Origin: Rhodospirillales bacterium
Lineage (GTDB): Bacteria; Pseudomonadota; Alphaproteobacteria; UBA9219
DNA: 24,245 nt
Direction: 5' to 3'
Assembly (NCBI GenBank): GCA_015654915.1
Contig: JAATFY010000182.1
Span: forward strand, 1 to 24,245
Part shown: positions 1,765-10,027 of the stretch, in pieces
Position numbering within the stretch: position 1 is the first letter of the stretch
Layout of the letters: every line of letters begins with the position of its first letter
Translations under genes and position numbers: made by a program
The notes under the pieces: generated by a model
The model's database searches: none
Told to the model about the DNA's origin: nothing
Seen by the model: only the letters and a program-made list of their open reading frames with translations

Positions 1765-2161
1765 GAATTCCAAACCCAAAGACACCGGCGCGCGCGTCCT
1801 GATCGCCGAGGACAATCCCGCTGGGCGCGAGTTCATCGTCCGATCGCTGGCCTCCGCTGGCCATAAACCCGTTGCCGTGGCCGACGGGCAGCAGGCGCTG
1901 GATGCCCTCGCTAAGGAAAAGTTCGACGTTCTGGTGACCGACATTGTGATGCCGAATGTCGACGGCATCGCTCTCGCCCTCAAAGCAGTGCGGCTCTTCC
2001 CCGATTTGCGCATCGTCATGATCTCCGGCTATGCACAGGAGCGTATGCGGGCGCATAACCTCGACGCCCTCGTGCATCGCATTATCGCCAAGCCTTTCTC
2101 GCTGGAAGAAATATGCGATGCGGTGAAAGAATCCATCTCGCTGCCGCCCGGCGCCGTCTGA
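1757..2161 (+). CDS. Single-domain response regulator (CpdR-like)
   Basis: Receiver motifs LIAED, VTDIVMP (phospho-Asp), ISGY, KPF; no output domain; overlaps the upstream gene by 8 bp. Confidence 0.85.
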   Translation: MNENSKPKDTGARVLIAEDNPAGREFIVRSLASAGHKPVAVADGQQALDALAKEKFDVLVTDIVMPNVDGIALALKAVRLFPDLRIVMISGYAQERMRAHNLDALVHRIIAKPFSLEEICDAVKESISLPPGAV

Positions 2162-2172
2162 GTTGGCATCTG

Positions 2173-3045
2173 ATGAAATCCCCCATCCGCAAAGCCGTGT
2201 TTCCCGTCGCCGGTCTCGGCACGCGCTTCCTTCCCGCCACCAAGGCGATGCCGAAGGAAATGCTGACGCTGGTTGATCGGCCTTTGATCCAGCATGCGGT
2301 GGACGAAGCGCGCGCGGCGGGCATCGAGCAGTTCATTTTCGTCACCAGCCGCGGCAAAGGTGCGCTGGAAGACCATTTCGACAGCAACAACGATCTGAAA
2401 CGCACGCTGGAAAAACGCGGCAAAAAACAGGCCCTAAGCATTCTGGAATCGACGGAAATCGAATCCGGCCAGTTGCTGTTCACGCGCCAGCGCGAGCCTT
2501 TGGGCCTCGGTCATGCCGTATGGTGCGCGCGGCATCTGGTCGGGAACGAGCCCTTCGCCATTTTGCTGGCGGACGACGTGGTGCTGGCGAAGAAACCCTG
2601 CTTGCAGCAGATGCTGGAAGCGTATGGTGAGGTCAGCGGCAATCTGGTCGCGGTCGTCGACGTGCCGCGCGAGCAGACCAGCCGTTACGGCATTCTGGAT
2701 GTCGAAAAAGACGACGGGCGGCTGGCCAAGGTCAAAGGCCTGGTCGAAAAGCCGGAACCGGCCAAGGCGCCCTCCACGCTTTCGATCATTGGGCGCTATA
2801 TCCTGCAGCCGGAAATTTTCCATGAGCTTGAAGCCAAGCGCACCGGCGCGGGCGGTGAGATCCAGATCACCGACAGCATGGCGAAGCTGATAGGAAAGCA
2901 ACCGTTCCACGGGTTGCGCTTCGAGGGCACGCGCTACGATTGCGGCGACAAGGTCGGCTTTATCGAAGCCAATGCCGCCTTTGCCTTGGCGCATCCCGAG
3001 ATCGGCCCGCAGGTGCGCGGCGTCCTGAAAAACCTTCTCCGTTAA
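2173..3045 (+). CDS. galU: UTP-glucose-1-phosphate uridylyltransferase
   Basis: KAVFPVAGLGTRFLPATKAMPKEML, GLGHAV, GAGGEIQITD. ATG at 2173 chosen as start. Confidence 0.96.
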   Translation: MKSPIRKAVFPVAGLGTRFLPATKAMPKEMLTLVDRPLIQHAVDEARAAGIEQFIFVTSRGKGALEDHFDSNNDLKRTLEKRGKKQALSILESTEIESGQLLFTRQREPLGLGHAVWCARHLVGNEPFAILLADDVVLAKKPCLQQMLEAYGEVSGNLVAVVDVPREQTSRYGILDVEKDDGRLAKVKGLVEKPEPAKAPSTLSIIGRYILQPEIFHELEAKRTGAGGEIQITDSMAKLIGKQPFHGLRFEGTRYDCGDKVGFIEANAAFALAHPEIGPQVRGVLKNLLR

Positions 3046-3054
3046 GGGATTCCC

Positions 3055-4356
3055 ATGCAGATCGTGGTGATGGGTGCTGGTTATGTCGGGCTGGTGTCGG
3101 CGGCTTGCTTCGCCGAGTTCGGCCACAAGGTCACCTGCATCGACCAAAATCCGGAACGCATGGCCGCCCTGCTGAAAGGCGATATTCCGATCTTCGAGCC
3201 CGGCCTTGACGAGCTTGTCGCCAAAAACATGGAACGCGGCACGCTGGTCTTTGCCGCCACTTTGATGCCCGCCATGGATTCGGCGGATGCCGTGTTTATC
3301 GCCGTCGGCACCCCCGCGCGGCGCGGCGACGGTTATGCCGATCTCAGTTATGTTTATAAAGCCGCCGAAGAAATTGCGCGGAGCCTCAAGCGCTATGCCG
3401 TCGTTGTCACCAAATCGACGGTGCCGGTCGGCACCGGCCGCGAGATTGTGCGGCGGATGCATGAGGCCAATCCAGAGGCCGAATTCGACGTTTGCTCCAA
3501 CCCCGAATTCCTGCGCGAGGGTTCGGCAATCAATGATTTCATGCAGCCCGACCGCATCATCCTCGGCTGCGAAAGCGACCGCGCCGCGGAGGTCATGAAG
3601 GCGCTTTACCGCCCGCTTTACCTGATCGAAACGCCGACGGTGCTGACGTCGCTCGAGACGGCCGAACTGATCAAATACGCCTCCAACGCTTTTCTGGCGA
3701 CCAAGATCACTTTCATCAACGAGATCGCCGATTTGTGCGAAAAGGTCGGTGCCGATGTGCAGGTGGTGGCGAAGGGCATGGGGCTCGACGGGCGCATCGG
3801 AAAGAAATTCCTTCATGCGGGGCCGGGTTTCGGCGGCTCATGTTTCCCCAAGGATACGGTGGCTCTCGCCCGTACTGCGCAGGACAAGGGCGCGCCGTTG
3901 CGCCTTGTCGAGGCCACCATCGACATCAACACGAAACGCAAAACCGGCATGGCGGATCGTATCATCGCCGCCTGCGGCGGTTCGGTGAAAGGCAAAACCA
4001 TTGCCGTGCTCGGCCTCACTTTCAAGCCGAACACCGACGATATGCGCGACAGCGTCAGCCTCGATGTCGTGCCCGCGCTGCAGAAAGCGGGAGCCGTTAT
4101 CCGCGCCTACGATCCGGCGGGAATGAAGGAAGCCAAAACGTTATTGAAGGACGTAACGTGGTGCGATGGTCCTTACGCGGCGATGCAGGACGCCGATGCC
4201 GCCGTCATCCTCACCGAATGGAACGAGTTCCGCGCGCTGGATATAAAACAAATGAAAGCGGCATTAAAACAGCCGGTGCTCATCGACCTGCGCAACGTCT
4301 ACAGCCCCGCCGATATGCGGGCGGCGGGTTTCAGATATGTGAGTGTGGGGCGGTAG
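3055..4356 (+). CDS. ugd: UDP-glucose 6-dehydrogenase
   Basis: Rossmann GAGYVG, NPEFLREG, ELIKYASN, catalytic GFGGSCFPKD, GLTFKPNTDDMR. Confidence 0.95.
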   Translation: MQIVVMGAGYVGLVSAACFAEFGHKVTCIDQNPERMAALLKGDIPIFEPGLDELVAKNMERGTLVFAATLMPAMDSADAVFIAVGTPARRGDGYADLSYVYKAAEEIARSLKRYAVVVTKSTVPVGTGREIVRRMHEANPEAEFDVCSNPEFLREGSAINDFMQPDRIILGCESDRAAEVMKALYRPLYLIETPTVLTSLETAELIKYASNAFLATKITFINEIADLCEKVGADVQVVAKGMGLDGRIGKKFLHAGPGFGGSCFPKDTVALARTAQDKGAPLRLVEATIDINTKRKTGMADRIIAACGGSVKGKTIAVLGLTFKPNTDDMRDSVSLDVVPALQKAGAVIRAYDPAGMKEAKTLLKDVTWCDGPYAAMQDADAAVILTEWNEFRALDIKQMKAALKQPVLIDLRNVYSPADMRAAGFRYVSVGR

Positions 4357-4357
4357 G

Positions 4358-5053
4358 TTACCGCTTTCTTTTGGATGGCGTTTCCATTTTCTCGACCCTG
4401 TTGAGAGGCGTCGCCTTTTCCCACATGGAATAAAACTGGTGGCGGAAAGCTTCGGCTATCACATGCGATTGGAAAACGACTATCTTCGGCGATGGATCGG
4501 ACTTGGTGAGAATAATCGCGTACTTATCGTCGTAAACGTAAAAAGGCACTGAGTCGACATAATGCTTGGAGATCCAGCGGCATTCGCAATAGGGCGCGGC
4601 CTGCGAGGCATCCCCTTCGGTTATAATGGATTTCACCGCGATGACGTCTGTTATTGCCTTCATTCTTTCGTAGTGAAAAGTTTTATAATCGCCGATGACC
4701 TCGGAAAACTGTCCTGTTGATGGCCAAACTTGCACTATTTCGCCGCGCCTTTTTTTGCTGGATTGGTAAACATCGTCGAAGAAAGCCTTGGCGCCTTCGC
4801 GACCTTGATAGATCGTTATATCCTCCGGCTTATGCCGTACACCACCGGGCTCGATAAATTCGAGGCCGTTATTCTCAAAAGCTTGCCGAAGCATCTGCGT
4901 GGTTTTGCCGCGCGGCGAGATGTGACCAAGCTCCAGTTTCCTTACGGTCGCGACGGAAAGGCCCGATGCGGCGGCCAGATCGTCCTGCGACCAATCGACA
5001 AGGGCGCGGGCCGCTTTTATTTGGCGCGCCGTAAGACTGCCCATCCTGTCCAT
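4358..5053 (-). CDS. XRE-family HTH regulator with extended C-terminal domain (copy 1)
   Basis: QIKAARALVDWSQDDLAAASGLSVATVRKLE is an XRE HTH; C-terminal VPFYVYDDKYAII...FYSMWEKA. Start is ATG 5053 or 5044. Confidence 0.85.
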   Translation of the reverse strand: MDRMGSLTARQIKAARALVDWSQDDLAAASGLSVATVRKLELGHISPRGKTTQMLRQAFENNGLEFIEPGGVRHKPEDITIYQGREGAKAFFDDVYQSSKKRRGEIVQVWPSTGQFSEVIGDYKTFHYERMKAITDVIAVKSIITEGDASQAAPYCECRWISKHYVDSVPFYVYDDKYAIILTKSDPSPKIVVFQSHVIAEAFRHQFYSMWEKATPLNRVEKMETPSKRKR

Positions 5054-5291
5054 ATGCACACCGTCAATCAAGTTCCTGCGAATGCTTTTCTTTTAGCGCA
5101 ATAACTGCAGAAAGTCATGTCGATCCGGAAAGTATAGGAAACCGTCAGGCTTGATATATGAAATAACTACTTCGCCCGAATATAGCCTTGGCAGGGCTTC
5201 GCAATGGACCAATCCTATGAATTCAGCCGTTGTCAAAGCGGCGAAAATCATGACACTCGCGGAATAGAAGAAATTAGATTTGGAGGGCATC

Positions 5292-5633
5292 ATGAATGCC
5301 GTGCCGGTCAGGTCCGAGATAGTATCCGACGAGTCGATCGAAACAATTACCGCGAATGCCGCGGATAATACGGTCGTTCCCTTCATGCACCGCAACACTC
5401 CGGATAGTGGATCGTCATCCGGCGAACTTCTCAATTCGCACAGTCTTCTCGCGCTTTACGCCGTCCTCGCGCATGTCGCTTCCAGCCACGACATGCCACA
5501 GGAACTCGTGCAAACTTTGGTGGAGGCCGAGTTCAGCGTCGACCATGTCGCCAAAATCCCGCAGCGCGATTTTCAGGGCGTCATGGCGTTTCTGCTCGAT
5601 TTGCGCATGGACGAAATCCGGAGCCGGCGATGA
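5292..5633 (+). CDS. Small hypothetical protein, ORF6C-like C-terminus (copy 1)
   Basis: GGAGGG RBS before ATG 5292. C-terminal EFSVDHVAKIPQRDFQGVMAFL resembles the ORF6C antirepressor-type motif and ORF 7985-8287. Confidence 0.72.
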   Translation: MNAVPVRSEIVSDESIETITANAADNTVVPFMHRNTPDSGSSSGELLNSHSLLALYAVLAHVASSHDMPQELVQTLVEAEFSVDHVAKIPQRDFQGVMAFLLDLRMDEIRSRR

Positions 5634-6007
5634 GCAATCGCCGGTTCGCGCCCAAAGAAAAAGCGCCGTCCGGCGCACGTGCTTCCGTCATTCGCTTTGT
5701 GGCCGGTCCGACCCCGCCACGCTGGACGTGCCATCATCATGCTCAAGGCTCGGATATCGAGGCTTATGTCGCAACTCTCGACGGGCTTGAGGTCATCGCA
5801 CAGACCAAAACTATGGATGGCGCCGACGCGCGGACGAACGCTGAGTTGATCGTACAGGCCGTAAATGAATACGAAACTTTACGGCCGCTGATCGCGGAAC
5901 TGGTTAGTCTATTGAAGTTGTATCCAGAAAGTAGCGGTGTGGCCGGCGGGGTAAGGCAGGATATTGAAACCGTTTGCCGCAAGGCGCGGCGGATCTTACG
6001 TATGTGA
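5630..6007 (+). CDS. Hypothetical protein, phage-like
   Basis: ATGA overlap with the previous ORF. TPPRW...TNAELIVQAVN resembles the phage-type 'TPGPW...ANARLIAAAP' pattern. Confidence 0.62.
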   Translation: MSNRRFAPKEKAPSGARASVIRFVAGPTPPRWTCHHHAQGSDIEAYVATLDGLEVIAQTKTMDGADARTNAELIVQAVNEYETLRPLIAELVSLLKLYPESSGVAGGVRQDIETVCRKARRILRM

Positions 6008-6084
6008 TCGCAAGATGGCAGCACTCGAGTAAAGGTTTGTATTCATTAGAGCGTCAATCTTGCGCCGTGCAGAGTACGAATAAT

Positions 6085-6864
6085 TCAACCGGCGGAAACT
6101 TTGGGGGTTGAGCCATTCGTTTTTCTCTGCGCAAGCATGATAAGAAGCGAAGTCATGACGCCGGGGTTTGTGACGGCTTCCAACTCTGTGGTTGTTACAA
6201 ATTGTTTGATGTTAAAGTCGCGTGCGAAGACTTCGCGGAAACGGGCTTTGTCCCAGAAATGCAGGACGTGGCCTTCCCGTTTTTTGTCGGTATAAACGGC
6301 ATCGCGAACCGTTTTGCCGTGTACCGTAAGCGCCTTCATCTGTTCGGGATTGAAATCTTTGGGGGAGCGCGCGCCGATGCAAAGGAAGCCGCCGGGGACA
6401 ATCCGTTCCGCGGCCTTAACTGCAAAATCGTCTACCGGTTTAGGGTCCAGAAGATGGATAGTACGATGGGAATATATGGCATCGAAATGTCCCACATGTG
6501 CATCAAGGACATGGGCCATGGTGCCATGCATAAAAGTGACGCTCCCCTTCATAAGTCCTTCGCTGTTTAATTGCCGTTGAGTAGCAGACGCCAGTTCCAG
6601 CCCTTTTTTCGAAGGGTCGATCGCCAGAACCGTATGGCCCGCCGCGGCAAATTTAAGCGCGTCGCGTCCGTAACCGCAGCCGATATCACACAACATAAAA
6701 AGCTGCGGGCCTTTGCCGGGCTGATTGCGGATAGTATCTCTTAAAAGATCCGCTGTCGGGCTGGAGTCATTACCCCAAATATGACCTTCGTCCGCATAAC
6801 GGCGGTCCCATAGGTCCGGTTTTTCTGCCACCATTGATGGCGTTGTGTCGTCAGGTAATGACAT
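6085..6864 (-). CDS. Class I SAM-dependent methyltransferase
   Basis: Motif I CDIGCGYGRD, then acidic LAIDPS, FDAIYSHRTIH; 24 bp downstream of XRE copy 2 on the same strand. Confidence 0.85.
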   Translation of the reverse strand: MSLPDDTTPSMVAEKPDLWDRRYADEGHIWGNDSSPTADLLRDTIRNQPGKGPQLFMLCDIGCGYGRDALKFAAAGHTVLAIDPSKKGLELASATQRQLNSEGLMKGSVTFMHGTMAHVLDAHVGHFDAIYSHRTIHLLDPKPVDDFAVKAAERIVPGGFLCIGARSPKDFNPEQMKALTVHGKTVRDAVYTDKKREGHVLHFWDKARFREVFARDFNIKQFVTTTELEAVTNPGVMTSLLIMLAQRKTNGSTPKVSAG

Positions 6865-6888
6865 TACTCAATCTTTCAAAAAATTACG

Positions 6889-7608
6889 TTATCTAATCTT
6901 CTTTTCTTTGAAGCGCGCCTCTGAAAAACAGGGTTTGGCTGCTTGCCAGAGGACGTTGAACTGCTCTCTATATGTTTTCGCAACCAGAGCCGAACAAATC
7001 ACAACGATCTGCGGCGTCTCATTATCTTCGAACATCATGATCGCCAGCTTATCGCCGTAAACGTAAAACGGAACGTTGCCTATTGCCTGTTGCGGGTTAT
7101 AGCGGTATTCGCGAAATCCGCCGGTTCCCTGCCGTTCTTCTGGCAGGCAGTGAAACGGGCCTTCCTGAACCAGCACCTGAACCTTGACGTTACCCAACTC
7201 TTTCACGCGCCGAGCGTGCAACATATAGTAATCGCCGAGATGCTTGTCGAACTGGCGGTCGTCGAAGCTGCTGACGCATACCGGCTTGTCGCCGTCCATG
7301 CGGGCCGAAGGTTTCTTTTCTTCTTCGTAAACATCGTCCATAAATTTCTTGAAGCCTTCAGCGCCTTCAAACCGAAGAACAGTGTCGCGGCTGAACCGCA
7401 CGCCTTCGTCTTCCGTAAATTCCACATGATGCGCGGCGAACGCCGCCTTGATCTGCTCCGCGGTTTGTTCCTGCGGACGGAAAGTTCCATGCTCGATATT
7501 CTTCACCGTCTCGGGCGAAATGTTCGCGGCCTTGGCCAGCTCGGTGCGGGTCCAGTCGAGGAGGCCTCGTGCGGCTCGTAGTTGGGCGGCGGTGATCATC
7601 TCATTCAA
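6889..7608 (-). CDS. XRE-family HTH regulator with extended C-terminal domain (copy 2)
   Basis: QLRAARGLLDWTRTELAKAANISPETVKNIE HTH; C-terminal VPFYVYGDKLAIMM...FNVLWQAA; alignable by eye with 4358-5053. Confidence 0.87.
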   Translation of the reverse strand: MNEMITAAQLRAARGLLDWTRTELAKAANISPETVKNIEHGTFRPQEQTAEQIKAAFAAHHVEFTEDEGVRFSRDTVLRFEGAEGFKKFMDDVYEEEKKPSARMDGDKPVCVSSFDDRQFDKHLGDYYMLHARRVKELGNVKVQVLVQEGPFHCLPEERQGTGGFREYRYNPQQAIGNVPFYVYGDKLAIMMFEDNETPQIVVICSALVAKTYREQFNVLWQAAKPCFSEARFKEKKIR

Positions 7609-7666
7609 CTCACAACATAAAATTCAGGCGCATTGCTCTGCACGCGTTCTGGTCTCAACTATTTAT

Positions 7667-7808
7667 GGTATACAATTACCGTTTTGGGAGTAACGAGCGC
7701 AAGCAATGCATTACTTTCATTCAACTTCTCTGCCAACATGATTCTTTCCTTAATTATTTATAAACCATAGAAAAGTTGTGTGCAACTATTTTTTGGTATT
7801 TTGTTACC
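7667..7808. promoter_or_regulatory. Two GGTA-N6-TACC palindromes in an AT-rich divergent promoter region
   Basis: ggta-tacaat-tacc (7667-7680) and ggta-ttttgt-tacc (7795-7808); a TATAAT lies at 7822-7827 on the + strand. Confidence 0.45.
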
Positions 7809-7984
7809 ATCTATTGGTATGTATAATGAGGGCAACAAAGTCATCGATATTGCATATTTTAGGTAATAAAAAGGCCGATAGACCAGCAAAATCGCTGAAT
7901 CCCGAAAAAGCCGCAAAGATTGCACACGAAAGCCAGAAATCAGGTTCAGGTTCTTAAGGTTAAAAATTTCAGAGGAGGTTTATT

Positions 7985-8287
7985 ATGATTGGCAGGTCAC
8001 ACAATGAAAACCACGCGCCGATGTCGGTGGTTTCCGTCCTTACCTCCGAGAGCTGGATGCAAAATCGCAATGACGACAAAGCCGCCGCGACGGTTTCGGC
8101 GAACGAACTGACATCGCTCAGCGCCCTGATCGCTTATGTCGCGTATAATTCCGGCGAGCATGAATTCCGCGTCGAGCGCCGCCTTGCCGATCGTTTCAAT
8201 ATCCAGAACGTCAGCCGTCTGCCGGCGGCTCTGTTTGACACCGCGATCCGTTATCTTGTCGACGGTATGGCGCAGGCTGCGGCTTAA
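7985..8287 (+). CDS. Small hypothetical protein, ORF6C-like C-terminus (copy 2)
   Basis: Strong RBS GAGGAGG; RFNIQNVSRLPAALFDTAIRYL parallels ORF 5292-5633. Confidence 0.75.
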   Translation: MIGRSHNENHAPMSVVSVLTSESWMQNRNDDKAAATVSANELTSLSALIAYVAYNSGEHEFRVERRLADRFNIQNVSRLPAALFDTAIRYLVDGMAQAAA

Positions 8288-9399
8288 ACGCCATTCATCT
8301 TTTTTATGATGAATTTGCCTATATTGATGCACGGCTTCTCTATCAAATTAAACATTACATAGCCCGCTAAAAGGGTTGTTGGGCATGCGATAGCGAACCA
8401 AACAAAAAATCTCACTTCACCCCATGATTGATTAAGGTGCAGTCCATTGAATATCCAAATCTTTATAGGATCAAGATAGGTTAGAATAAGAGCGTGGCAT
8501 AGATATATCGAGTAACAGTAAACTCCATACTTTCCCAGAACCCGATTTCTAGTTATCTTGCCAAAAAAGGATTTCTCAGAAAATGACGCAATAAACATAA
8601 CGGCCAGAGCTGCTGTTGCCAGAATGAGATTTGAAGTCAGGAAAAGACCAAGGATTATGAAGGCCAATACATCCAACAAAACAAGAACGGTCCGACTTTC
8701 CAGAATGCCGGTTTTAAACGCAGGGTGGATGCTCCAGTAATATAAAATGATCCCGACCCCGAAACAAAACCAGTGATGAAGCGGAAAGACAAAAGAATTT
8801 TCGGCGGGAACATTCAGACGCGGCGCGGCATAATTCCAGAAGAAGGCCAATCCCAGTGTCATAATGCCAAACCATGTGGCTTTTGATAGATTTGTTACGT
8901 AACAAAAAACGAGCGGCAAAAATAAGTAGAATGTCTCTTCCACAAAAATTGACCAGCCCATGGGGAACAGTTCCGCCTGCGCCCTGTTGCGGTGAATCAT
9001 AAATCCGAAATAGAGAAAGTAATCGGGGAGGCTGCTTGCCACCGTTCGATGGGCCATCAGCATATAAATGGCGTTTATCAGCCACCAGAACGGCAGGATG
9101 CGAAAGGCGCGTCGAAGATAAAATGAAATCGTCGGTTTTTTGTCGATCGTAAAGCGAATTTTCGAGGACGCGAATAACGTAAATGCGCTGATCATAAAGA
9201 ACAACTGCACCCCACGCGCGCCCGCATTTATAAAGCGCTCAATAAAATGAAAGTGAAAAAGATCGGCTGCCTCATCTCGGCAAAATGCCGCCGTATGGAC
9301 GGCGACAACCATGAGGATCGCAATACCGCGCAAGCCGTCGATATACGGACGATGGAGGCTGTTTTCTGTTGCCGTAAACTGCTGGTTATCAGTGAGCAG
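8284..9399 (-). CDS. Acyltransferase family 3 (OafA/YrhL-like) membrane O-acyltransferase
   Basis: YIDGLRGIAILMVVAVH, GVQLFFMISAF, FYLRRAFRILP, WSIFVEETFY, YSIYLCH, IEKP; multi-TM. The frame is open upstream of TTG 9333; a CTG start at 9399 is inferred and uncertain. Confidence 0.88.
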   Translation of the reverse strand: MLTDNQQFTATENSLHRPYIDGLRGIAILMVVAVHTAAFCRDEAADLFHFHFIERFINAGARGVQLFFMISAFTLFASSKIRFTIDKKPTISFYLRRAFRILPFWWLINAIYMLMAHRTVASSLPDYFLYFGFMIHRNRAQAELFPMGWSIFVEETFYLFLPLVFCYVTNLSKATWFGIMTLGLAFFWNYAAPRLNVPAENSFVFPLHHWFCFGVGIILYYWSIHPAFKTGILESRTVLVLLDVLAFIILGLFLTSNLILATAALAVMFIASFSEKSFFGKITRNRVLGKYGVYCYSIYLCHALILTYLDPIKIWIFNGLHLNQSWGEVRFFVWFAIACPTTLLAGYVMFNLIEKPCINIGKFIIKKMNGV

Positions 9400-9403
9400 A
9401 GAA

Positions 9404-9692
9404 CTTCCCCGGTGACCAAGAAGTCAACCAGAAGGGTTTCACCCTCTGGTGATCGGGGAGTTGATAAACCTGCTGTAACAGAGGTCGCGTAAGCCTTTGG
9501 CCTTTCGGCTTGGACATACACTTACGCCTCCCCGACCATAGTCGAGGAGTGCGAAACGGTCACACAAACCGGTTACAGCAGGGGTTATCACGCCCCGAAG
9601 ACAGGAAAGTCCTGCCTCTGCCACACAGGATGCTGGCAAAGGAACGGAAGGTCAACGGAGAAAATAGTGAGGGTTTTCTCGTCTGATAGTCC
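9404..9692. ncRNA. Candidate large structured noncoding RNA or leader, family unidentified
   Basis: Many nested helices, including an 11-bp perfect stem 9469-9479/9572-9582 extended by tgataa/ttatca and cgggg/ccccg, plus at least five further hairpins; no credible ORF. Confidence 0.5.
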
Positions 9693-9716
9693 GCCTTCGC
9701 CAAGGCTTCGGCGGAC
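9689..9716. repeat. Palindromic repeat gtccgccttcgccaaggcttcggcggac
   Basis: 7-bp stem gtccgcc/ggcggac; core related to the copies at 19740-19767 and 19818-19845. Confidence 0.65.
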
Positions 9717-9756
9717 ATAAGATTTGCTAATTCGCTGCGCTCATAAGCAAACCTAA

Positions 9757-9880
9757 TGGAGCGGGTGAAGGGCTTGCCGCGAAGGCGGCAAGTTAAGGTG
9801 CGGTTGTGCGTGGAGCGGGTGAAGGGCTTGCCGCGAAGGCGGCAAGTTAAGGTGCGGTTGTGCGTGGAGCGGGTGAAGGG
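9757..9880. repeat. 54-bp tandem repeat copying the tRNA-Gly 3' end
   Basis: Unit tggagcgggtgaagggcttgccgcgaaggcggcaagttaaggtgcggttgtgcg occurs identically at 9757 and 9811; its first 16 nt recur at 9865 as the tRNA 3' end. Confidence 0.95.
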
Positions 9881-9938
9881 AATCGAACCCTCGTCGTAAG
9901 CTTGGGAAGCTTCTGCTCTACCATTGAGCTACACCCGC
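9865..9938 (-). tRNA. tRNA-Gly (CCC)
   Basis: Reverse complement gcgggtgtagctcaatggtagagcagaagcttcccaagcttacgacgagggttcgattcccttcacccgctcca: cloverleaf, TTCGA T-loop, encoded CCA. Confidence 0.97.
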
Positions 9939-9944
9939 TTATAG

Positions 9945-10027
9945 CTGCTAGTCCTTAGTTGCCAGCGGTTAGCTGATCAATAATTTAAATCGCTAACAAC
10001 TAACCGCTAACAACTAGCAACTAACCC
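9945..10027. repeat. Inverted arrays of heptamer repeats
   Basis: Left: ctgctag tccttag ttgccag cggttag. Right: ctaacaa ctaaccg ctaacaa ctagcaa ctaaccc. AT-rich spacer between them. Confidence 0.7.

Follow-up and report, generated by a model that had tools for sequence, protein, structure and literature searches.

TrmB and TrmBL2 of Thermococcales (PDB 3qph, 2f5t, 5bpd/5bpi) join an N-terminal DNA-binding domain to an inactive PLD-fold domain, a design shared with the regulators described here. The R-M controller C.Kpn2I (PDB 4yba) belongs to a type of protein of about 80-100 aa that has no effector domain and autoregulates from repeated operators. Streptomyces genomes each carry many paralogous XRE-DUF397 pairs (WhiJ-BldB paralogue loci; Scr1/Scr2) consisting of an XRE-family regulator and a small non-DNA-binding partner, and WhiJ9 binds repeats in its own divergent intergenic region (PMC10294661, PMC6262351, PMC10364602). 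In Burkholderia phage phiE202, the P2-like immunity region (phrog_6521) encodes gp22 directly after the XRE HTH_3 repressor gp21.

Here, we analyse two regulator/small-partner gene pairs at positions 4358-8287 of a 24,245-nt stretch of alphaproteobacterial DNA (the window). On balance, we consider it probable that each pair is a portable, autoregulated sensor-regulator control cassette with a small protein partner, which seems to turn the attached enzyme gene on or off, whatever its identity. The cassettes are best read as neither phage, toxin-antitoxin nor R-M modules. Neither the regulator tail nor the partners fall within a Pfam, NCBIfam or PADLOC family, and a literature search returned no paper on the cassette, in agreement with a previous sequence-only reading that had not recognised a named system.

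Results

Gene anatomy of the two pairs

An ORF check recovered all four genes of the duplicated two-gene architecture described in the sequence-only reading, which had overlooked a second small partner, the enzyme cargo, the operator-like repeats and the lineage-wide expansion. Pair 1 comprises Reg1 (4358-5053, minus strand; 231 aa, 163 homologues in the protein collection), whose start is the same as in a 231-aa database protein, a divergent intergenic region (5054-5291) and A1 (5292-5633, plus strand; 113 aa). The start of the second small partner gene, B1 (5630-6007, plus strand; 125 aa), overlaps the A1 stop by 4 nt (ATGA), and B1 appears translationally coupled to A1. Pair 2 comprises the paralogue Reg2 (6889-7608, minus strand), with 239 aa if read from a TTG at 7608 and 236 aa from an ATG at 7599, and A2 (7985-8287, plus strand; 100 aa). 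The ATG is probably the true Reg2 start, because the start ATGATCAC (M-I-T) is conserved at this position in the orthologous loci. A class I SAM-dependent methyltransferase gene (6085-6864, minus strand; Methyltransf_25 E 4.9e-13, Methyltransf_11, TPMT, TehB) begins 24 bp downstream of Reg2 on the same strand and matches small-molecule families, not DNA methylases. A2 is convergent with a gene for an Acyl_transf_3 membrane acyltransferase (8284-9333, minus strand; PF01757 E 4.9e-24), with overlapping stop codons.

The segment between ugd and tRNA-Gly has a G+C content of 46-54% versus 60%. Searches of the source genome, an incomplete assembly of 1.53 Mb (69% complete), revealed six regulator paralogues, three A genes and two B genes. 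DNA similarity between pairs 1 and 2 is left only in short coding stretches and each pair has separate orthologues in other genera, which indicates that the two did not arise by recent tandem duplication.

Domain structure of the regulators

Reg1 and Reg2 align end to end, as had been claimed, with 33% identity across 230 residues (E 4e-44), and contain the motifs F.DDVY..KK and VPFYVY.DK.AI...P.IVV. Pfam HTH_3 was detected at residues 12-51 of Reg1 and also in Reg2. Based on the AF2 model of Reg1 (pLDDT 92.6), residues 2-75 superimpose on C.Kpn2I (structure alignment: Z 13.5, rmsd 1.4, 34% identity; sequence profile E 2e-13) and residues 76-216 on TrmBL2 (VIA-align: Z 13.2, 18% identity). Foldseek returned TrmBL2 (E 5e-9), TrmB (E 3e-6) and Nuc (E 9e-6), which bears out the proposed TrmB-like/PLD-fold C-terminus; PLD3/4 also match residues 76-216 in structure comparison, and AFDB contains clusters of equal HTH plus TrmB_C layout. 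The HxK..D motif is not conserved in the PLD-fold domain, and Pfam Regulator_TrmB (PF11495) does not match the regulator. The models thus predict a C.Kpn2I-like XRE HTH (2-75) followed by a catalytically inactive PLD-fold domain (76-216) that most resembles TrmBL2/TrmB.

Two unrelated families of small partners

The small partners A1 and A2 share 21% identity across 73 residues (pairwise E 3e-5). This similarity, also noticed previously, is real and not due to chance, since (i) a third A paralogue on contig C215 bridges A1 (E 1e-11) and A2 (E 4e-5) and (ii) a 58-sequence family-A profile finds both A2 (E 5.8e-40) and A1 (E 5.2e-17) in a whole-genome search. The AF2 model of A1 shows helices at residues 49-65, 70-81 and 91-112 with pLDDT above 90, preceded by disordered residues 1-45; the predicted core is an acidic three-helix bundle (pI 5.4 in A1; family median 5.3, with 69% below 6). 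Its closest structural matches are phage Sak (Z 8.8) and Red-beta (Z 7.0), in both cases to the C-terminal domain that binds partners, at Z values that can arise by chance between helical bundles.

The core of family A is probably homologous to the phage families phrog_5825 (best E 4.7e-5) and phrog_6521 (best E 5.6e-4; A2, E 0.0018) and to the N-domain of phiE202 gp22, where the alignment spans residues 35-96 (hhalign E 1.1e-5, probability 82%). The phage-regulatory flavour of the earlier assignment to ORF6C/antirepressor-type proteins therefore stands, but not the ORF6C name: PF10552 gave no match to A1 or A2 at E<=1, and none in a six-frame search across the genome at E<=10. Weak leads in this direction are antirepressor PHROGs (E 0.016-0.11), BFVD ORF6C/Bro-N folds (E 0.03-0.3) and an Atlas score of 0.83 for the ORF6C and Flk_N clusters. 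Matches to the NCBIfam model of Flk (E 0.039) and to GemA (E 0.032) are not significant, and E. coli Flk aligns with hhalign E 0.007 at 5% probability.

B1 has homologues at C215:7126-7605 and, in 11 related genomes, among ORFs linked to a regulator. B was found in one family only; a regulator lies within 1.5 kb in 21/28 B loci, and an operon of A followed by B is seen in 4 loci. The A and B families are not related to each other and take the same position next to the regulator.

Distribution, pairing and enzyme cargo

All 41 of 41 genomes of the order (Micavibrio-like Alphaproteobacteria with small genomes) encode the regulator family, with 285 copies in total and 1-23 per genome. Up to 23 copies reside in a 2-Mb genome at conserved chromosomal positions, and outside the order the family is rare (8/200 other genomes of the class). 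Taking the best A per genome, we found a regulator within 1.5 kb in 25/29 loci. Plain head-to-head pairs make up 23 of these; the remaining two loci each have two regulators, one downstream of A on the same strand and one divergent from A. Such conservation of the divergent pair had been anticipated. About half of the sampled regulators (14/29) have no A or B gene within 1.5 kb, so the partner gene is not obligatory for the regulator. Sequence identities among regulators track those among A proteins (Mantel r 0.43, 0/2000 permutations), and the copy numbers of the two are correlated (rho 0.63-0.69).

In many cases the regulator is the first gene of an operon whose enzyme gene varies by locus. 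The 38 ORFs downstream of regulators include eight Methyltransf_33 proteins, other methyltransferases, three GNATs, an AKR, a 2-hydroxyacid dehydrogenase, an aminotransferase and an FAD/NAD oxidoreductase. The slot equivalent to that of the 6085-6864 methyltransferase holds other enzymes in relatives, and the galU-ugd-Reg/B-cargo-Reg/A locus is syntenic in another genome with different cargo.

Conserved repeats in the pair-2 spacer

Exact GGTAT-N4-TTACC sites occur only twice in the 1.53-Mb genome, both in the 385-bp pair-2 spacer. The first, putative operator O1 (GGTATACAATTACC, 7667-7680, plus strand; a GGTA-N6-TACC palindrome), lies within conserved block 1 of 12 orthologous intergenic regions; a third half-site, GTAA, lies beyond it at 7691-7694. 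In the 12-locus alignment, a block CAAGC-N7-TACTTTCA with fixed spacing (7700-7719, plus strand) comes next. Conserved block 2 upstream of A2 (7782-7827, plus strand), delineated by the alignment and a motif scan, consists of GCAACTA, putative operator O2 (GGTATTTTGTTACC, 7795-7808), a half-site GGTAT (7816-7820) and a TATAAT-like hexamer (7822-7827). O1 and O2 lie 128 bp apart, and the syntenic locus L043 has exactly the same distance between them.

Allowing <=1 mismatch, GGTAT-N4-TTACC is present in 10/12 orthologous pair-2 spacers and in 13/40 of all spacers versus 0.8 expected. Its orientation is constant across pair-2-type spacers, where the sites form a footprint amid otherwise diverged DNA, and A2 orthologues in 11 other genomes keep the A2 upstream region. 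The wider palindrome GGTA-N6-TACC has only 10 sites in 1.53 Mb versus about 22 expected. No 6-mer is more enriched in Reg-A/B intergenic regions than GAAAGT (26/40 versus 7.8 expected). The enriched motifs TTAACCAT and TGAAAGTA are genome-wide and not specific to the module; the latter, part of the 7700-7719 block, occurs 55 times. The pair-1 spacer lacks GGTAT-N4-TTACC and yielded no operator, its short blocks being common to the two closest orthologous loci only. No palindrome common to all regulator subfamilies was found, and a sigma-70 promoter scan gave scores at background.

Discussion

We propose that the regulator binds DNA via its XRE/C-protein-type helix-turn-helix, while the inactive PLD-fold domain most likely serves in signal sensing, with a small molecule or a protein partner as the signal, in oligomerisation or in both. 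In the cassette, a small gene (A, B, or A then B) lies divergently beside the regulator. In pair 2, Reg2 would recognise a pair of tripartite GGTAT-N4-TTACC-N7-9-GGTAw sites in the shared spacer, the first about 70 bp before the Reg2 start and the second directly upstream of, and partly overlapping, the TATAAT-like hexamer before A2; binding at both sites would place both divergent transcription units under its control. The acidic A core in comparison to the regulator pI of 8.3, the Sak/Red-beta-like bundle and the probable homology to gp22 suggest that A acts on its cognate regulator through protein binding, as an anti-repressor or co-regulator, and does not bind DNA.

Alternatively, A and B could be mere outputs, regulator targets that act elsewhere (e.g. 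in the envelope or metabolism) without feedback on the regulator. A regulator and its target would be just as likely to be adjacent and co-inherited, A/B is missing beside about half of the regulators, and unrelated A and B fill one slot as variable cargo would; the annotations of the A-related Flk (flagellar assembly protein) and of gp22 (membrane protein) suggest roles outside transcription. We nevertheless regard this reading as unlikely, although it is a serious contender. Enzyme cargo sits on the opposite side in the operon of the regulator, which sets the conserved A/B slot apart, A and B are small, non-enzymatic and without membrane segments, A co-diversifies with the regulator across paralogous subfamilies, and XRE plus A-like adjacency is also seen in a phage immunity region.

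A CI/Cro-type bistable switch, with A as a second DNA-binding protein competing with the regulator at shared operators, would fit the divergent layout, the two repeats 128 bp apart and the capacity of three-helix domains to bind DNA. It is improbable, however, as the A core is acidic, family-model searches detect no HTH family in A, and its weak fold matches to LysR and homeodomain DNA-binding domains have probabilities of 0.04-0.1, whereas the best matches are protein-binding bundles.

We find it very improbable that the pairs are toxin-antitoxin or anti-phage defence systems with the HTH protein as antitoxin/controller and the neighbour as toxin/effector. The HTH does resemble HipB-type TIGR03070 (E 2.8e-7), PADLOC Control_protein (E 9e-11) and RmrA (E 9e-8), and XRE-DUF397 pairs were once proposed as TA systems (PMC6262351). 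These matches are, however, essentially confined to the HTH, Pfam and PADLOC show no toxin, nuclease, RmrT or restriction family nearby, the PLD-fold domain lacks the catalytic HKD residues, the genes are divergent and not in an operon, and many copies occupy conserved chromosomal positions. The neighbours are small-molecule-type methyltransferases, GNATs and reductases, and the earlier comparison with regulators of defence operons found no evidence. Decayed prophage immunity regions or R-M control units (C-protein plus methyltransferase) might account for the low G+C, the C.Kpn2I-like HTH, the methyltransferase gene after Reg2 and the phage relative of A, but are scarcely credible given 2.9 million viral contigs without A relatives, a locus that by ORF and family annotation lacks phage structural, integrase and endonuclease genes (as had been noted for the structural genes), a methyltransferase of non-DNA type, both cassettes adjoining galU-ugd in another genome with different cargo, and a family present in every genome of the order.

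Considered as control cassettes, the pairs combine features of several known systems. TrmBL2 is the best full-architecture match to the regulator, but the TrmB head is a winged helix whereas the regulators here carry an XRE/Cro-C1 HTH, and they contain only the PLD-like subdomain (about 140 aa) without the extra sugar-binding barrel of TrmB. Unlike TrmB/TrmBL2, they form a multi-copy family in bacterial hosts and are paired with small partner genes. C.Kpn2I is the closest solved relative of the HTH, yet its R-M systems differ from this locus, which has no endonuclease or DNA methylase. In phiE202, gp22 is unlike A in its length (247 aa), membrane-protein annotation, co-directional arrangement with the repressor and phage-borne location, and gp21 has no PLD-fold tail. 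The ORF6C (PF10552)/Flk_N/GemA group shows a similar helical pattern (..F.V....IP...F..A..fL) with no significant model, and A proteins stand alone, unlike the Bro-N/KilA-N/ANT-fused domains of the ORF6C group. The comparison with XRE-DUF5753/DUF397 pairs made in the sequence-only reading is apt as an analogy: the cassettes would work like WhiJ-BldB pairs in their logic only, with no sequence relationship, and combine a PLD-fold tail (DUF5753 in Streptomyces) with a divergent three-helix-bundle partner (a downstream DUF397 gene in Streptomyces) in a different phylum.

Results

Organization of the two regulator–partner pairs

The two regulator–partner pairs (4358–8287) lie within a segment of low G+C content (window 4300–9940; 46–54% vs about 60% in the flanks) that is limited by the end of the galU–ugd pair (2113–3045 and 3055–4356) and by tRNA-Gly(ccc) (9865–9938, minus strand). 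The XRE-HTH regulator of pair 1, Reg1 (4358–5053, minus strand), is separated by a 238 bp spacer from its divergent small partner A1 (5292–5633, plus strand), whose stop codon is overlapped in ATGA by the start of a second small gene, B1 (5630–6007, plus strand). Convergent with B1, a class I SAM methyltransferase gene (6085–6864, minus strand) is located 24 bp downstream of the paralogous regulator Reg2 (6889–7599/7608, minus strand), on the same strand. The spacer from Reg2 to its partner A2 (7985–8287, plus strand) measures 385 bp, and A2 converges with an Acyl_transf_3 gene (8284–9333, minus strand); the stop codons of the latter two genes have 4 bp in common (8284–8287) without a terminator between them. 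Two nested inverted repeats (5864–5882/6029–6047 and 6009–6025/6048–6064) between B1 and the methyltransferase gene, where the two genes converge, may constitute a bidirectional terminator. The source assembly is a 1.53-Mb MAG, 69% complete, from a wood-decay metagenome; a look-up of RNA runs that contain the window returned none.

The sequence-only reading had described regulators that align end to end and small partners that share a pattern, and had overlooked B1 along with the adjoining enzyme gene and the larger family. Both likenesses are borne out: Reg1 and Reg2 share 33% identity (E 4e-44), and A1 and A2, at 21% identity (pairwise E 3e-5), are bridged by a paralogue on another contig of the source genome (C215) and are both recovered when the whole genome is searched with the family profile (A2, E 5.8e-40; A1, E 5.2e-17). 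Since DNA-level likeness of the two pairs is limited to short coding stretches and each pair has its own orthologues in other genomes, the duplication is ancient.

At the same position in a related genome (L043), the same two regulator cassettes occur with other cargo, that is, with other enzyme genes co-directional after the regulator. In this syntenic locus, galU–ugd–Reg/B is followed by an FAD/NAD oxidoreductase–Reg operon that faces A. Both cassettes hold position while the cargo changes, and the segment from ugd to tRNA-Gly resembles a hotspot for variable accessory genes more than it does one mobile element.

Architecture and distribution of the regulator family

HTH_3 (PF01381) is matched by 51/51 regulator-family members, with 34.2 bits for Reg1 and 32.4 bits for Reg2 at a gathering cut-off of 23, and sequence libraries recognise nothing beyond this N-terminal domain. 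We compared an AlphaFold2 model of the regulator, derived from 51 sequences (pLDDT 92.6), to known structures. Residues 2–75 superimpose on the restriction–modification (R-M) controller C.Kpn2I (Z 13.5, rmsd 1.4, 34% identity), which the HTH also matches by sequence profile (E 2e-13); with its XRE HTH, nearest to C.Kpn2I, the head differs from the winged helix of TrmB. Residues 76–216 adopt a phospholipase-D (PLD) fold in the model, which confirms the TrmB-like/PLD-like C-terminus that had been suggested from sequence. Of the fold matches named here, TrmBL2 is the top one by identity (18%; Foldseek E 5e-9; Z 13.2, rmsd 2.7, 126 residues aligned), and the others include vaccinia F13 (Z 13.6), PLD3/PLD4 (about 13), Nuc (12.7) and TrmB (11.1–11.4). 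As in the TrmB family, the PLD-like effector domain is placed after the DNA-binding domain, and the nearest predicted structures are AlphaFold DB clusters that combine an XRE, ArsR or TrmB head with a TrmB-C-like domain.

The tail shares its fold with the catalytic PLD superfamily (Nuc, PLD3, Zucchini) but not the catalytic HxK(x)4D motif: no column of the family alignment pairs a conserved His with a Lys at +2, and the sole frequent His (position 127, 71%) is part of a helix and has no partner Lys. The tail conserves G84, F91, R159, Y174, F207 and W211. The TrmB C-terminal model PF11495 matched neither the proteins (Pfam, E ≤ 1) nor the genome translated in six frames (E ≤ 10); DUF7436 (PF24217) weakly matched 9/51 family members (best E 3.3e-4), 0/10 further members at E ≤ 0.1, and nothing in the six-frame genome search. 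The C.Kpn2I-like HTH and the PLD fold that lacks HxK(x)4D thus identify the regulator, as modelled, as a TrmB/TrmBL2 analogue that combines an XRE head and a dead PLD-fold effector domain.

The regulator family is present in every one of 41 genomes sampled across the genus, family and order of the source genome (285 matches, 1–23 per genome of about 2 Mb); the source genome itself has six copies. Elsewhere in the class, a tail-only query detected it in 8 of 200 evenly drawn genomes, all eight of them small (1.3–2.1 Mb), and the regulator-bearing relatives point to Micavibrio-like lineages. One relative has an HTH-only regulator fragment of about 64 aa (L034:3066–3257) ahead of a second, co-directional A gene; the fragment is a minimal regulator or else a paralogue that has been truncated.

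The small partner families A and B

Neither Pfam, NCBIfam nor PADLOC returned a match for family A, which comprises A1 and A2. When 1.8 billion representatives were searched with its profile, at least 564 family A clusters were obtained, the best 150 of which are all small stand-alone proteins (50–181 aa); where the matches carry a name, it is ‘hypothetical protein’. Related genomes contain 129 family A genes (38 of 41 genomes). AlphaFold2 predicts a disordered N-terminal half and a three-helix bundle at residues 49–112 (pLDDT above 90), and the core is acidic (median pI 5.3) in contrast to the basic regulator (pI 8.3). The top structural matches of the bundle are 80-alpha Sak (Z 8.8, rmsd 1.6, 61 residues), NinB (7.5) and Red-beta (7.0), values that helical bundles may reach by chance; the matched regions are the partner-binding C-terminal bundles of these phage recombination proteins. 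Against the PDB, sequence profiles gave nothing below E 0.5 and Foldseek nothing at E ≤ 0.001.

The pattern common to A1 and A2 had been taken to recall the ORF6C domain of phage antirepressor-type proteins. We could not recover this identity with PF10552, which matched neither A1 nor A2 at E ≤ 1, none of 16 family A members at E ≤ 10 and nothing in the six-frame genome at E ≤ 10. Weak leads in this direction are (i) antirepressor PHROGs at E 0.016–0.11, (ii) BFVD fold matches that include Bro-N and ORF6C proteins (E 0.03–0.3) and (iii) an Atlas score of 0.83 with ORF6C/Flk_N clusters. The comparison with Flk (hhalign E 0.007, probability 5%) is likewise a lead.

Significant profile similarity over the three-helix core is found to two phage PHROGs, phrog_5825 matching 10/16 family A members (best E 4.7e-5) and phrog_6521 matching 6/16 (best E 5.6e-4); A1 taken alone is matched by neither. 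Residues 35–96 of gp22 from Burkholderia phage phiE202 align with family A over 62 columns (hhalign E 1.1e-5, probability 82%), and tblastn of the A2 core against phages returned just E 0.5 matches to phiE202-like gp22, which are meaningful only given this profile comparison. In phiE202, gp22 directly follows the XRE HTH_3 repressor gp21, opposite an Arc-like repressor; an XRE regulator thus lies beside an A-like domain in the immunity region of a temperate phage as well. A search of 2.9 million viral contigs (IMG/VR) found no family A relatives.

Family B is confined to one family of the order (34 genes in 12/41 genomes), with 21 of 28 B loci linked to a regulator, and the A-then-B operon of the window recurs in three other loci. 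An Atlas score of 0.88 with Phage_P22_Y8K6 is a lead. Two further kinds of small ORF accompany the regulators. In the C215 copy (4750–5240, equivalent to L002:936–1426, minus strand), a conserved 55-codon ORF (MLEFEKFLARHGEVVAQAILENLERYEGV...) lies between the regulator and an A-type gene; it is conserved at the protein level in a related genome (L028) and could represent a third type of small partner. ORFs of about 130–160 aa with the motif ..FTALGF.AV.M.G....AKRA.G.A.LIEEFC recur 90–240 bp downstream of regulators (L020:2255–2644, L022:2440–2892, L023:999–1376, L025:2265–2747 and L068:107–559); at L020 and L023 such an ORF separates the regulator from a B gene.

Linkage of regulator, partner and cargo

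We determined regulator–partner linkage from the best A gene of each genome, taken as an unbiased sample (n = 29 loci). A regulator lies within 1.5 kb of A in 25 of the 29 loci; 23 of these 25 show a plain head-to-head arrangement across a spacer of 300–550 bp, and in the remaining two A is co-directional upstream of one regulator and divergent from a second. The divergent pairing put forward in the sequence-only reading thus stands when counted from A, but the reverse count finds A or B near just 15 of 29 best-regulator loci, so that the partner is common and not universal. As expected of linked units, the identities of regulator and A co-vary (34 pairs, Mantel r 0.43, 0/2000 permutations) and their copy numbers correlate (rho 0.63–0.69), neither relation being independent of phylogeny.

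In roughly half of the sampled loci, the next ORF after the regulator runs in the same direction and starts at most 60 bp away. These 38 cargo ORFs include eight Methyltransf_33 proteins, about five other SAM methyltransferases (among them that of the window, 6085–6864), three GNAT acetyltransferases, an aldo-keto reductase (C215 copy of the source genome), a 2-hydroxyacid dehydrogenase, a class IV aminotransferase, an FAD/NAD oxidoreductase and a transglutaminase-like protein. Judged by their domain matches, the cargo genes encode predicted small-molecule enzymes and not defence, toxin or phage proteins, and give no support to the proposed likeness to regulators of defence operons. The eight Methyltransf_33 (EgtD-like) matches reach a best E of 9e-35. 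A recurrent cargo protein of about 330–350 aa, which may coincide with these eight, carries the N-terminal motif ..GHMGPQMYQHH.. (L027, L034, L040, L041, L042, L023).

Putative operators in the divergent spacers

Alignment of pair-2-type spacers from 12 genomes reveals two footprints amid otherwise diverged DNA, which correspond to 7667–7680, 7700–7719 and 7782–7827 in the window. Block 1 consists, in this order, of GGTATAsAnTTACC, TTTTT, one more GGTAA-like half-site and CAAGC-N7-TACTTTCA; block 2 consists of GCAACTAA, GGTATTTAnTTnCC, N7 and GGTATGTATAA, with a TATAAT-like hexamer inside GGTATGTATAA. Common to both blocks is the pattern GGTAT-N4-TTACC-N7-9-GGTAw. In the whole 1.53-Mb assembly, exact GGTAT-N4-TTACC occurs at two sites, both in the pair-2 spacer (7667–7680 and 7795–7808), and the looser GGTA-N6-TACC at 10 sites vs about 22 expected. 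Allowing up to one mismatch, GGTAT-N4-TTACC is present in 10 of the 12 orthologous spacers and in 13 of 40 regulator–partner spacers vs 0.8 expected (maximum of 4 in 200 simulations). Its orientation is constant in pair-2-type spacers, and the two sites (O1 and O2) lie 128 bp apart both in the window and at the syntenic locus. We read these sites as putative operators of the Reg2 subfamily.

An RNA hairpin at block 1 is unlikely because GGTC...TAAC variants break base pairing; Rfam gave no match over 4300–10000 except the tRNA. A mini-ORF (MKVMHCLRSLLPKR) upstream of Reg2 was discarded, the orthologous spacer L047 having GGAAAG there and no start codon. Pair 1 yielded no operator, an exact gapped-palindrome search of 40 spacers for an operator common to all subfamilies stayed at background, and the promoter and terminator scan stayed at shuffle background.

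The 6-mers GAAAGT, GGTTAA/TTAACCAT (TTAACC/ATGGTT) and CAACTA are enriched in the spacers. These words are not assigned to the module because they include genome-wide motifs: TTAACCAT and TGAAAGTA, considered as module operators, occur at 79 and 55 sites. For TTAACCAT, which we take to be the 8-mer form of the alphaproteobacterial CtrA box, roughly 22 sites would be expected by a rough estimate from base composition; the 55 sites are those of (A)TGAAAGTAA. Both AT-rich words (an example in the window is at 7712–7719) are strongly over-represented in intergenic DNA genome-wide and sometimes occur together; they may be the signature of a global regulon or class of promoters to which the cassettes belong.

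Discussion

We hold with moderate confidence that regulator, partner and enzyme gene form a portable regulator cassette. The C-protein-like HTH would bind repeated half-sites in the divergent spacer and thereby govern the partner gene as well as its own operon of regulator and enzyme. A signal would reach the regulator through its dead PLD-fold domain, by analogy with sugar sensing by TrmB, and the acidic, partly disordered A (or B) would bind and modulate its cognate regulator. An anti-repressor role of the partner is a tentative proposal. Doubtful, in our estimate, is a more far-reaching reading as a lineage-specific ‘plug-in’ system of Micavibrio-like Alphaproteobacteria with small genomes, in which dozens of paralogous XRE–PLD-fold sensors, each with a private operator and with a cognate small acidic A/B anti-repressor derived from a phage immunity-region protein, would wire variable, horizontally acquired enzymes into the cell, the dead PLD domain serving as docking or ligand site.

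The main rival, which we rate as improbable, makes A and B mere outputs of the regulator. The co-variation of identities and the acidity of the A core lend indirect support to a putative contact between A and the regulator. It is unlikely that A, small and encoded opposite an XRE regulator, is a Cro-like DNA-binding protein; its nearest folds are partner-binding bundles. Equally unlikely are a toxin–antitoxin (TA) or defence module and a prophage or R-M remnant, whatever the kinship with C.Kpn2I and gp22: no toxin, RmrT or endonuclease–methylase partner was found among neighbouring genes by PADLOC, Pfam or NCBIfam, and the neighbours in 38 loci are metabolic enzymes, not those of TA, RosmerTA or R-M controller systems.

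The design of an HTH joined to a TrmB-like effector domain is already known. The XRE-headed multi-copy bacterial family, both partner families and their operators are neither curated nor described, and a literature search found no paper joining XRE, TrmB and phospholipase D, nor one relevantly joining Micavibrio and XRE. Three families without curated model or literature thus come into view, the regulator tail, partner A and partner B, within a regulator set that is among the most expanded across an entire, poorly known order of Alphaproteobacteria whose members have genomes of about 2 Mb and are probably predatory or host-associated. The cassette could flag variable accessory enzyme genes in metagenome-assembled genomes, and the predicted operator makes the cassette model directly testable in E. 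coli. If the partner is an anti-repressor, the phage immunity-region family of phiE202 gp22 and phrog_6521 would gain a function.

The Streptomyces WhiJ–BldB/XRE–DUF397 network provides a working analogy for the cassette (PMC6262351, PMC10364602): WhiJ9 binds repeats in the spacer from which it is divergently transcribed, whereas its counterpart of the A protein, BldB, is no DNA binder (PMC10294661). The comparison with XRE–DUF5753/DUF397 pairs, already drawn in the sequence-only reading, holds for the logic but not for the parts, as Pfam detected neither a DUF5753 tail nor a DUF397 partner in the regulators or in family A; the cassette and the WhiJ–BldB pairs are alike in logic only. An anti-repressor role of the partner would make this a second, independently evolved XRE-plus-small-partner logic besides that of Streptomyces development and, if the ‘plug-in’ reading is true, the cassette would be a bacterial counterpart of the WhiJ–BldB network built from entirely different folds.
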